NCBI GenBank assembly: GCA_951406725.2
Contig: OX597815.1
Location: forward strand, 80,538,001-80,602,000
DNA from: Octopus vulgaris
Taxonomy: Eukaryota
DNA length: 64,000 bases
Reading direction: 5' to 3'
Part shown: in pieces, positions 45,412-50,345 of the stretch
Layout of the letters: every line of letters starts with the position of its first letter
How positions within the stretch are numbered: the stretch's first letter is position 1
Notes under the pieces: generated by a model
The model's database searches: none
Seen by the model: only the letters and a program-made list of their open reading frames with translations
What the model was told of the DNA's origin: nothing
Position numbers and translations under genes: made by a program

Positions 45412-47124
45412 GTGTGTGTGTGTGTGTGTGCGCGCGCATGCATATGTTACACACAGACATAGAAGTATATCTATATCTTACACATACTTTAATGTATTCA
45501 TGGCTGTTGATATCGAGAAATGCAAAGAAGCTATTTTTTTCAAAATTTTTGGCAAATGATGGTTCAGTTCATTGATTGATTCCTCCCCACTCACACACAA
45601 GCATTTTACTCTAATATGCATATAATGTCATCATTATCGTTAAATTACTAATTTCTGTACCACAATATATATATATATATATACATATTTATTTATATAT
45701 ATATGTGTGTGTGTGTGTGTGTATACTGATATGTCTATGATGTTTGCAAACATCTCGCCATTGGCCAGTTTTTTTTTAGGTCAATTTTCATGCTTTAATG
45801 GAGGGAGAAAATATCTCCCTCGGTTTCTTGTACTCTAATCAAATCATCCTCCCATTTTTATATGTAAATTCATCTGTCAGTGTACCTAAATATATAGGTA
45901 AATAACTATCTATTATTTTTTTTTTTTTACATTTGTAACTATCCATGTGTTTTCCAATTACCTCGTAGAAATAAATATCCATCTGCATGCCTCATCATTT
46001 ATTTCCACGATATCAACACAATATATCTAATTGCTCATCACATACAACCATTTTAAATGAATTTTGGATCATTACTTTACGATTTACATCTTTTTTTTCT
46101 ATATTTGCATATGTCTTTACTTTATATTTGTTTTCTCAACAACATTGATGAGTCTTTTAAATGTTTTTCCCACTAGGCTAAATACTCTGCTTCTTGTAGC
46201 CGTGACATAGTTAAATTCTGCTATTCAACTGTAATCTCAGAAGTTATTTTAAAATTAATTTGTAGTGCCACTGTGTGCCATTCATTTGTGGTAACTCAGT
46301 TTCAATCCTTAGCCATTCATCTGATTTACATTGCTAATGGTCTTTTGATTTTTCCTTGTATAATTGTATAATTATGTAATTTATTAACTGTTTAAAAAAT
46401 AAATTTAAATTAATAGTTATGTGTCTGAATAAACTAAATTTTGTTGCCTATACCAATTATAATAATGCTAATTGCTTCTTTAAATATGTAGATAAAAAAT
46501 GTATTTCTTTAAATAAATTAAACGAAATAAATATCTATGGAAAAGTAGCAGAAAAATATACGACTGGATATTTTATCAGTAGATTCAAAATATGTATATA
46601 TATTTTAAGTTGTGACTATATATGTTTGCGATTCCGACAGCTTTTTACATATTTTCCTCCTTCCAAACTCACTCGCAAGACACTTGCTGGTCCAGAGTTA
46701 TAGTAGAAGATATTTTCTCAGGTAGCTGCACATTGGAACAAATCGAAATAAAATAATAAATAATTATAATCTCAAACCAAGTTAAAACGATGCAAAATAT
46801 ATTTTGTTACTGCATTATAATAATGCTAATTCTTAGCAATAATCCATTGTTATGTGTGTTGCTGCAGCTATTGTTGTTGTTGCTGTTGCAGTAGTTGTTT
46901 TGTTTCTCATCGATCAGAAAGATACCATAAATATTTCAGGCATGACCAACCATCATTTTCACAGTATTAAAGACTTCATTACCAAATATGTTTGTTCTTC
47001 ACTTAAGGCAGTAATGTAATTTCAAGAACATTTGTAGGTAATTTATATTACAAGTTGTCGCATAGAGAATCCCCTTTAGCATATTTTAATAATAGTTGTA
47101 GTTGTTATTGTTGTTACATGTGTT

Positions 47125-47887
47125 GGATCATTACCTTTTGACCTACAGATTTAAAAAATATTTTTTTGTCACAAAGCACTTTCAAACTTCGGACACTGGT
47201 AGAATGTATCATATAAAACATCTCTTAGCATTTTTGAGAAAAACTTATATTTACGAAGTTATTTCACATTAAAGTAGTCGTATTTCGGTAATTTCAACCA
47301 ATCAATGACGTGTATTCAGCTGAATAAAATTATTGCCGTTGTTTGTCAACAACAATTATCGGCGGTGTATTTTTCGTTTGTCACTGTTATTTATGATATC
47401 GTTCGTGCGTTTGTACTGGTTTTAGCTTTAAGGTTTTAGTGTTAGGGTCAGGGTTTTAGGGTTTTAGGATTAGGGTTAGAGTCTTAGGGTTAGGGTTAGG
47501 GTTTTAGGGTTATGGTTAGGGATTTAGGGTTAGGGTTATGGTTTTAGGGTTAGGTTTAGGGCGAAGGTTTTAGAGCTAGTGTTTTAGGGTTAGGGTTAGG
47601 GTTAAGGTTTTAGGGTTAGTGTTTTAGTGTTAGGGTTGTCATAAATAACAGTGACAAACGAAATATACACCGCCGGAAGTTCTTGTTGACAAACAACAGC
47701 AGTAATTTTATTCAGCTGAATACACGTCATTCTTTAACGTGAAATAGCTTCGTAAATATAAGTTTTTTCTCAAAAATGCTAAGAGTAAAACATGTTTTAT
47801 ATGACACATTCTACCAGTGTCCGAAGTTTGAAAGTGTTTTGTTACAAAACATTATTTTTAAATCTGTAGATCAAAAGGTAAAGATCC
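47125..47887. mobile_element. Non-autonomous foldback DNA transposon (MITE) with long TIRs enclosing telomere-like repeats
   Basis: TIRs ~47125-47398 and ~47637-47887 (GGATC.TTACCTTTTGA.CTACAGATTTAAAAA...). Termini are GG...CC. Flanks CATGTGTT (47117-47124) and CGTGTGTT (47888-47895) form an 8-bp TSD with one CpG-type mismatch. Confidence 0.9.
47419..47636 (+). repeat. Degenerate interstitial telomeric-like repeat (TTAGGG / TTTTAGGG)
   Basis: Run of TTAGGG and TTTTAGGG units with variants, e.g. TTAGGGTTAGGGTTAGGGTTTTAGGG. Confidence 0.9.
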
Positions 47888-50345
47888 CGTGTGTTTGTGA
47901 TATTATTAATTATTGTTGAGTAAGAGGAATAGTCTTATTATTCATCAAGAGAGTGACTCTGAAACTATGCTAATCCCCTTATTGTCATAGTACCCGTAAG
48001 ATCTAATTAGACTAGATACTTGATTGTATCTCGCATTGTAATTTCAAAATCAATCCTTTAAGACAATAAAATTTAGGTAAGAAGACACGGTGCTGCTAGA
48101 GTGCTTTACTGTCCTCCATTTCTTGAATAGAAGCTGCCCCGTTTCCCAAGTAAATGCTAAAAATCTAGCTGTAACATGTAAATGTTTTATTTTTCTAACC
48201 AGGTAACTCCATTCAAAGTAATTAGCTTTTGATTGGAATAGATGAAACTAACAACTGTTGTACAGTAGGATTATTCTACCACGCTTCCAGATTCTATCAT
48301 CGAAAGGCGCTTTTGAGTCAGACGCTTCTTTTAATATCTTCATAACTCATCGGTATATCACTTATATACAAACTTGATGCATTAATAACGCACGGGAATC
48401 TTATTTCAATTTCCCTATGCATCTCTGTTTATACATAGCTCTTAAAAACTATATGTTCAGTTCAAGTCATTAACTGTCTTTCAGTTGTACTGATGTGACT
48501 TCAAGATGATGGAAAAAAAATTTAAATATCAACAGTAGTGAAAGAATACTTAACTTTAACGAGATTCGAAACATCACTCTATACTGTACATTGAAGATTA
48601 ACACAAATGCTAAAAAAAAGAAAAAACTGGATTCGAACTTTCACATTATTTGTCACGTTCAACAGTAAATAATTACTTCTACCCTGCAAAAACAGATTAT
48701 TCTATAAAACTGGTAAAAAAAAAGGGTGATGTTAGGAGATACATACAAAATAAATTACAGTAAATACGCCGCGAACTGGCATTCATTAGAGGGTTAGATA
48801 GAGAGATTGCTGCAGTATTCGTTTCAGCTCTCTGCATCCGGATTTTATGAACACCAAGGTCATCTTTGCTTTCTCTCTTTTCGAATTCGATAAATAAAGT
48901 ACCACTCTTTAATGGGACCGTTTCACCACCCCGTTCTCCCTCGAAAATAATCGCTTGTGCTGTGATTTGGGGAAGGATATGCTCTATCAGGTTTAAACAA
49001 AACCCTAAAACACGCTATATGCTATAACTGCACCCTATGACCTCTAGTTTAGGGCCCAAGGTAAAGCATAACCATAAATATATTTCATTATTCTCTACTG
49101 AAAAAATTATGCCGTTACCTTATGGTACTCAATTGAAATACCGCCATTGTTTCGAAGTTGGTAATAAAATATTCAATCGAAGACAAAATATTCATTACAG
49201 CTCCAACTGTTTCGTTTATTATTTTGCATTAATTTTCTTTAAAATGTTTAAAATTTTTTCTAAATAACAGCGTGAGTATGTTATCCAGAGCTTTGATGAA
49301 CTACGTTTCTTAATAACTCAGTTGAGAGAAGCTAAACACAGCTCTCAACTCAAAGGAAAATCCACACATCCTTTCTCTCTTTGTATTAATAAATAATATA
49401 CAAGTGTGATAACAACACTTTCTTCAAAATGCTAGACTAAACAATTGTCCGAAAATGTAAAGATGTTGCTGGTGCCAATGATAAAATTGCTTCCTACCGA
49501 AAGCTTAGCCTAGTATATTATATACAAATCAGCTTTCTGAGTTCCATCCCTCTACAGGCTGTTGGCCAAATAAGTTTAAAACTACAAGTAGGAGTGAAAT
49601 TTGCTGCATCACAAATTCAGCAGATTGAAATGCACATATAAATGTGTCTGTATGTATATGTGTTCTTTGTACATATATAAATGTATTTGCTATTCTTAAT
49701 TAAGAGTTTAAAAATTTCCAGAACATAGTACTTTTACAATTCACGCGTGTATATGGGTGTGTTTTATGTTTTAAAAATCCAAGGACGGCTTACATTCGAT
49801 CACTCTAATTTCCTTTTACTTTCAGTTGCTCTCTTCCAGGATATGGATATTTACAGCGATTGGGTTTGCATGTAGAACATTTTGACGGAGTACCTCGAAA
49901 TAATAATTTCCTATGTTGCAAGCCTAATTATCCGTTTCATGCAGACAAATTGATTGTTGCTCCCACTGCAAATATTTCGTTTTCCGATTTTTTTTTTATT
50001 TCTTAAGACGCAAGGACTACATTATTTAATGATTCTTTTTATAAAATGATAACAGAATGTGAAATTAAAATGATTTGGCTATCATTTCTAGTTGACCAAA
50101 CAAGCGCCCTGAGACGCTTTCTTCAGTATTTATAGTCAGAATGGCCACATTACATTGTGTCGGTTCAATCCAAATAAGGAAAATATATAAAGATAATAAA
50201 AGGACACACAAATGCAAAATGAGTTTTTAAAAGTAATTATAAAATAAATAGGAAAGAAAAGATTAATAGTGTTGAAACATTTTCAATGATCGCAGCTAAG
50301 AAATTCAGACAAGCTTCATAGTTTAATCATTCATGCAGCTGTTGG

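Follow-up and report, generated by a model that had tools for sequence, protein, structure and literature searches.

Merlin DNA transposons are defined by a terminal GG, terminal inverted repeats (TIRs) of 24-462 bp and target-site duplications of 8 or 9 bp; several Merlin families have internal tandem repeats, and the authors who describe them propose that Merlins spread such repeats (PMC8101967). The non-autonomous Merlins Merlin1m_CI (TIR of 155 bp) and Merlin-1N1_LVa (TIR of 325 bp) combine GG ends, an 8-bp duplication and an inner tandem repeat with the absence of a reading frame, and Merlin-1_Aplcal carries a 6-bp-period array of 39.5 copies, the unit being comparable by period alone as the repeat letters are absent from the table (PMC8101967). 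Among molluscs, Merlin is almost confined to cephalopods in automated libraries (PMC10294476), with 191 Merlin-related proteins in Octopus bimaculoides (PMC8101967) and 18 Merlin families covering 2.19 Mb in Octopus vulgaris (PMC13282606 supplement), while the only telomere motif that has been tested in a cephalopod is TTAGGG (PMC13218726, PMC6160780). Here we describe a 763-bp element (47125-47887) in a 64,000-nucleotide stretch of the O. vulgaris contig OX597815.1, hereafter the window, which shares with the non-autonomous Merlins the GG ends, the 8-bp duplication, the lack of a frame and the inner tandem repeat. The account we favour, with slightly better than even confidence, is that the element is an old, decayed member of an abundant family of non-autonomous foldback DNA transposons with a TTAGGG-like minisatellite between the arms, likely moved by a Merlin-type transposase and probably carrying the repeat as passive cargo.

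The element opens with GGATC at 47125 and finishes with GATCC at 47887, and its parts are arranged as follows.

47117..47124, plus strand: left target-site duplication CATGTGTT, likely a mutated copy (CG to CA, as in CpG decay)
47125..47398, plus strand: left TIR, 274 bp, starting with GGATC (arm alignment)
47275..47303, plus strand: 29 bp that in this copy only the left arm contains and that are frequent in the family (arm alignment)
47399..47417, plus strand: non-repeat linker, 19 bp, from left arm to core (arm alignment)
47418..47637, plus strand: degenerate TTAGGG/TTTTAGGG minisatellite core, 220 bp, 20-bp period, its G-rich strand pointing toward the right arm
47487..47509, plus strand: predicted canonical four-tract G-quadruplex motif (loops of at most 7), the sole one in the core (motif scan)
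47638..47887, minus strand: right TIR, 250 bp, ending with GATCC (arm alignment; 74 contigs depart at 47887)
47888..47895, plus strand: right target-site duplication CGTGTGTT, at whose first base the match of a contig of the organism labelled C begins (likely empty site)

The arms, which the original prediction had put at about 250-270 bp, measured 274 and 250 bp; 226 of their aligned positions match and 17 do not (93%), and the predicted GGATC and GATCC termini were both located. Two indels separate the arms: 29 bases (47275-47303) occur in the left arm only and 6 bases in the right arm only. The 6 bases absent from the left arm near 47221 are present in many other copies (loose ends at 47222/47227), and the 29-bp stretch is reflected in a loose end at 47731 in 58-60 contigs in three of four runs. 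The 8-bp duplication proposed earlier also holds, as CATGTGTT and CGTGTGTT are identical at 7 of 8 positions and, among lengths of 2 to 12, none fits equally, the runner-up being 4/6; agreement of at least 7/8 arose in 966 of 984,064 8-mer pairs (0.1%) drawn from both local 1-kb flanks. Between the arms, where nothing but repeats had been expected, the array of about 220 bp is indeed of TTAGGG type, but it is preceded by the non-repeat linker. The longest stop-free frame in the element has 53 codons. Folding of the single strand gave -211.95 kcal/mol, compared to -53.1 +/- 5.1 for shuffled sequences (z of -31; none of 20 shuffles was as stable), and the predicted fold is one long hairpin in which linker and core stay unpaired. 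A loop of about 240 bases on a hairpin arises only in single-stranded DNA or RNA. A BLASTN search of the window with the element matched only its own arms and core, revealing no second copy, and no Rfam family was matched in 44000-51000.

Words of the element were present in 20 of 24 listed public runs from 10 studies, which carry five coded organism labels (A-E), and eight of the 24 were compared with it. Run X1 shows no difference from the left flank, may derive from the sample behind the window, and was not treated as independent. Contigs depart into unlike flanks exactly at 47125 (53 contigs in X1 and 56 in X3, with flank agreement of 0.40-0.41) and exactly at 47887 (74 contigs in X2, with flank agreement of 0.40), so the TIR is not single-copy. 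Summed contig depth in the terminal bin compared to the flank was 72,275 versus 15.9 in X2, 33,183 versus 8.15 in X16 and 21,641 versus 6.46 in X17, that is 3,300 to 4,500 times the flank depth, a measure that is no copy number and conveys an order of magnitude only; from it we infer only that the family may number hundreds to thousands of copies. The element almost certainly belongs to a dispersed TIR family. Among metagenome contigs, exact patterns for the terminus and for the linker each returned no match, as did a relaxed terminus pattern among prokaryote genomes, and comparison of the left arm plus linker with plasmids gave a single chance match (E of 0.9).

The core accounts for 17 of the 24 plus-strand TTAGGG units in the window and for all five occurrences of TTTTAGGG. 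Its autocorrelation is 0.72 at 40 bases, 0.70 at 20 and 0.63 at 6, Tandem Repeats Finder assigns it a period of 20, and the longest perfect TTAGGG run among the 17 exact units is three units. The core is thus better termed a 20-bp (6+6+8) minisatellite than a pure hexamer run. A telomere-fusion scar was excluded, as the repeats point in one direction only. Beside the canonical G-quadruplex motif listed above, four motifs are predicted in the core when loops of up to 12 are allowed, and the G4Hunter mean is 0.92, compared to 1.5 for pure repeats; G-quadruplex folding or protein binding of the core is possible, and the shelterin-like recruitment and the breakage or healing sites envisaged by the original prediction would be putative roles of what is a degenerate array.

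Other copies, in other organisms too, carry this core as well. Contigs with 3-17 differences span the border between core and right arm in X2 (records 17 and 18) and X16 (record 1), shorter overlaps of core and right arm are found in X16 record 2 and X17 record 9, and X1 record 8 and X3 record 16 run from the left arm through the linker into the beginning of the core. Four further runs contain diverged contigs in which arm and TTAGGG-like DNA are joined, so the core is no one-off repair patch. Depth at the core end, taken over the last 40 bases wholly inside the core, was 116-137k compared to 255k in the inner arm in X2, about 29k to 83k in X16 and 26-28k to 62k in X17; ratios of about half (X2) and 0.35-0.45 (X16, X17) are expected if one arm of the two adjoins the core. 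At position 47628 most of the depth in X2, X16 and X17 is G, which is nearer to TTAGGG than the letter in this copy. Joints that reach back 34, 42 or 48 bases indicate that the number of core units varies among copies. A close variant of the linker exists in organism C, as a loose end at 47637 in 31 contigs of X9 shows. The TTAGGG-like core is therefore, as far as contig sequences can tell, very probably a family-wide trait; the concern that TTAGGG might be confined to this copy is answered by the diverged contigs with arm-linker-core joints, and the earlier proposal of a non-autonomous element spreading interstitial telomere-like sequence agrees with a multi-copy TIR element whose other copies share the core.

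The history of this insertion can be read in part from organism C. A 3,047-bp contig (X9 record 32) aligns to 47888-48189 with 21 differences in 302, and runs on for 538 letters that are not placed on the arm, so that organism C likely represents the empty site for this insertion. The match from exactly 47888, with no difference listed at 47889, suggests that CGTGTGTT was the target and that CATGTGTT decayed at its CpG. Contigs of organisms B, D and E bridge a junction of this insertion. The arms differ from one another by 7% and the flank differs from organism C by 7%; with a substitution rate of 0.0036 per million years (PMC13282606), and assuming that the arms were identical at insertion, the insertion would very roughly be 10 million years old. 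The arm's outermost 18 bases are nearly missing from organism C (depth of 40.6 over 47870-47889, compared to 28.3 for single-copy DNA), and inner arm, close linker variant and core are all abundant in it. Loose ends at 47162 and 47844-47845 mark sister elements with other outer ends, in A, D and E too. Sister elements with these inner arms and other outer ends dominate in organism C. Since they keep inner arm, linker and core with other ends, the inner module appears to be older than the present ends.

As to the superfamily, a 5'-GG stands at both ends, the duplication is 8 bp, as read at a single site, and both arm lengths (274 and 250 bp) fall within the Merlin range of 24-462 bp. Judged on these letters, we lean towards Merlin membership. 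The Merlin likeness asserted by the original prediction is plausible from GG ends, duplication and arm length, and falls short in that no transposase or autonomous partner was found. The hAT and P superfamilies have CA- or TA-type termini and were excluded, as the ends here are GG...CC. The same anatomy and spread could also belong to a Mutator-like (Mutator-like element, MULE, or foldback) or other non-Merlin derivative, a contender that we hold to be clearly less likely than Merlin. MULEs often begin with G and generate 8- to 11-bp duplications; the rule for Mutator-like and foldback elements is a duplication of 9 to 10 bp, with 8 bp occurring too, and classic Foldback arms consist of tandem subrepeats. 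The long arms and foldback shape of the element are in keeping with such an origin, as is the list of recently active O. vulgaris families, which comprises 21 Mutator, 49 unclassified TIR and 2 Merlin families (PMC13282606 Table 1). However, a terminal GG combined with exactly 8 bp matches the signature given for Merlin (PMC8101967), fits of 2/9 for a 9-bp and 4/10 for a 10-bp duplication at this site lower the Mutator-like assignment without excluding it, the left arm is free of any 10-base direct repeat and hence of tandem subrepeats, and Merlin is abundant in octopods. In Repbase, non-autonomous elements are filed under a classified family whose first 11 bases they match (PMC4455052).

With regard to the core, we consider it probably devoid of selected function. 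For a functional core, host telomere-repeat-binding (Myb/TRF-like) proteins would bind the array and thereby aid end pairing, protection or escape from silencing, and unrelated elements would keep acquiring and retaining it; we regard this as improbable. It would fit the near absence of the outer end in organism C, which is yet rich in inner arm, linker and core, the loose ends at 47162 and 47844-47845 that mark sister elements with different termini, and the 11 TRF-type sites predicted in the core by motif. A further lead comes from the S2 Appendix of PMC8101967, where the short motif TTTTAGGG-TTAGGG-TTAG, of 8+6 make like the core, stands in many records around Merlin hits, whole and in one common context in 7 of the 8 places viewed out of 36. 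In these records (LD accessions), which would represent the hemichordate set, the motif, which goes unmentioned in PMC8101967, adjoins a small palindrome. That Merlin-type foldbacks in several animal lineages keep a 20-bp telomere-like core because telomere-binding proteins serve them would be just as improbable. The array is degenerate, its unit number varies and no perfect run exceeds three units, and shared descent alone accounts for retention in the sister elements. The core might also be telomere-like by convergence, as a G/T-rich minisatellite grown by slippage and never made by telomerase; this would replace only the origin step and seems to us rather unlikely. Telomerase copying one template would not yield regularly recurring variant units, and here the TTTTAGGG units recur regularly, the 20- and 40-base periods score above the 6-base period and other simple repeats abound in the window (120 rows); against convergence, there are 17 exact TTAGGG in 220 bp on one strand, the same as the reported cephalopod telomere motif, and the majority letters of the family are nearer to TTAGGG than this copy. 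It is hardly credible that the TTAGGG tract entered this copy alone during repair, or that the whole feature is a local palindrome or assembly artefact. Another large palindrome in the window (41538-44830) does stop at a gap of N, but the arms here are 7% apart with private indels and many unlike flanks adjoin both exact ends, which rules out an assembly artefact, and diverged contigs link arm, linker and core in several runs, which refutes a one-off repair patch unless these contigs derive from few segmental duplicates.

Several observations weigh against the account of a Merlin-moved family with a passive core. The records from outside reach the core ends and not 47437-47589, and none spans arm, core and arm; unrelated TTAGGG repeats may pile up and inflate core depth, and in X9 core depth exceeds inner-arm depth. 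No transposase or longer coding copy was linked to these ends in the window and the public contigs, no genome assembly having been searched, and the duplication length rests on a single site. The single target copy at the empty site of organism C is what we infer. The raw-read runs X22 and X23 (label A) had a mean arm depth of at most 4 and none over most of the flank, near-empty results which suggest that the organism-A label is broad. Finally, the inner arm, linker and core kept in sister elements fit less easily with a purely passive core.

In a Merlin-moved family with a passive core, the arms would be recognised by a Merlin-type transposase whose gene lies elsewhere and which would cut at the GG...CC ends and duplicate 8 bp of target. 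The founder may have lost its gene by internal deletion, the gap being filled with, or growing, a seed of TTAGGG type that telomerase might have added while a break was mended, and slippage would then have enlarged the 20-bp unit (6+6+8). Transposition would have scattered the array to hundreds or thousands of interstitial sites, and this copy would have inserted very roughly 10 million years ago, after organism C had split off but while A, B, D and E were still undivided, and decayed since.

The window contains further repeats. Its simple-repeat density and the look of its dispersed short repeats suggest an octopus, which protein searches did not show; in one of them the best named matches were from Limulus, and the two named for Octopus ranked last of 30. 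A 3.3-kb palindrome at 41538-44830 (93.5% by BLASTN, with arms up to 100% over 306 bases) stops exactly at a gap of 100 N (44831-44930) and is likely a foldback artefact of a contig end, or else a real young inverted duplication. A near-perfect palindrome at 58841-59392, with 208-bp arms (98%) around a 13-bp spacer, lies between (TA)n runs and is possibly a TA-targeting foldback MITE (miniature inverted-repeat transposable element). A broken mariner transposase relic (HTH_48 and Transposase_1) with 79% identity to a 342-aa protein lies at 60212-61083; it was the sole Pfam match among seven repeat-derived frames and is unrelated to the foldback element. Two fragment copies (11761-12241 and 37034-37532) are 72% alike and a further fragment lies at 54431-54859; these have no Pfam match and resemble what we take to be relics of long interspersed elements. 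A dispersed repeat of 150 to 230 bp, probably a short interspersed element, has more than a dozen copies in the window with 70-91% identity, among them the following.

3960-4116: copy of the dispersed repeat
5604-5836: copy of the dispersed repeat
8340-8503: copy of the dispersed repeat
16218-16347: copy of the dispersed repeat
22975-23198: copy of the dispersed repeat
25784-25949, 26941-27109, 37652-37823, 50958-51194 and others: further copies of the dispersed repeat

With its many differently aged copies, the foldback element makes it possible to ask directly whether telomere proteins attach to short degenerate tracts and whether such tracts break or decay neutrally. In this lineage the element would add interstitial signal to telomere fluorescence in situ hybridisation, to read-based telomere estimates and to TTAGGG-based scaffolding. 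Were the core functional, the interstitial telomere-like sites of this genome would come mainly from a DNA transposon, which would provide thousands of protein-bound and possibly fragile sites to a lineage noted for reshuffling its genome; with a core that is mere cargo, the element joins the repeat-carrying MITEs as a neat but ordinary member.

Elements that carry and spread tandem arrays in a comparable manner are miDNA4 of Xenopus tropicalis, the GTCY MITEs of moths, CgHINE of oyster and the Tetris foldback (PMC9659126, PMC6947457). The MITEs and Helentrons with central repeats differ from the present element in belonging to other superfamilies and, in the accessible text of these sources, no telomere-motif array is described for them (PMC9659126, PMC6947457); in the Tetris foldback the repeats sit in the arms, unlike the central core here. 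Short interstitial telomeric sequences are likewise short degenerate TTAGGG tracts inside chromosomes, and transposition of mobile elements is a possible route for the large heterochromatic interstitial class (PMC6410037). Each of the short tracts is usually put down to a single repair event (PMC8537989), whereas here one tract has multiplied as cargo. A literature search, with most subscription journals, Dfam, Repbase and the Zenodo library outside it, found no TTAGGG-cored DNA transposon in cephalopods; the supplement of the O. vulgaris repeat paper (PMC13282606) has no match to 'telomer' or 'TTAGGG', and the accessible parts of PMC9071541, PMC9498494 and bioRxiv 10.1101/2021.09.26.461848 contain nothing on a DNA transposon with a telomere-motif core. 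Non-autonomous elements that spread tandem arrays are thus already known and the telomere-motif core is apparently new, with the proviso that Dfam, Repbase or Zenodo may hold a consensus. DNA transposons bearing the telomere repeat of their host exist in ciliates, namely TBE of Oxytricha and Tel-1 of Tetrahymena. The repeats of TBE and Tel-1 are short and placed at the tips of autonomous elements, whereas here the repeat is central, degenerate and enclosed in a gene-less element. Compared to the known Merlins, in the description of which 'telomer' is absent from the main text (PMC8101967), the element differs in that the telomere motif occupies almost its entire interior.

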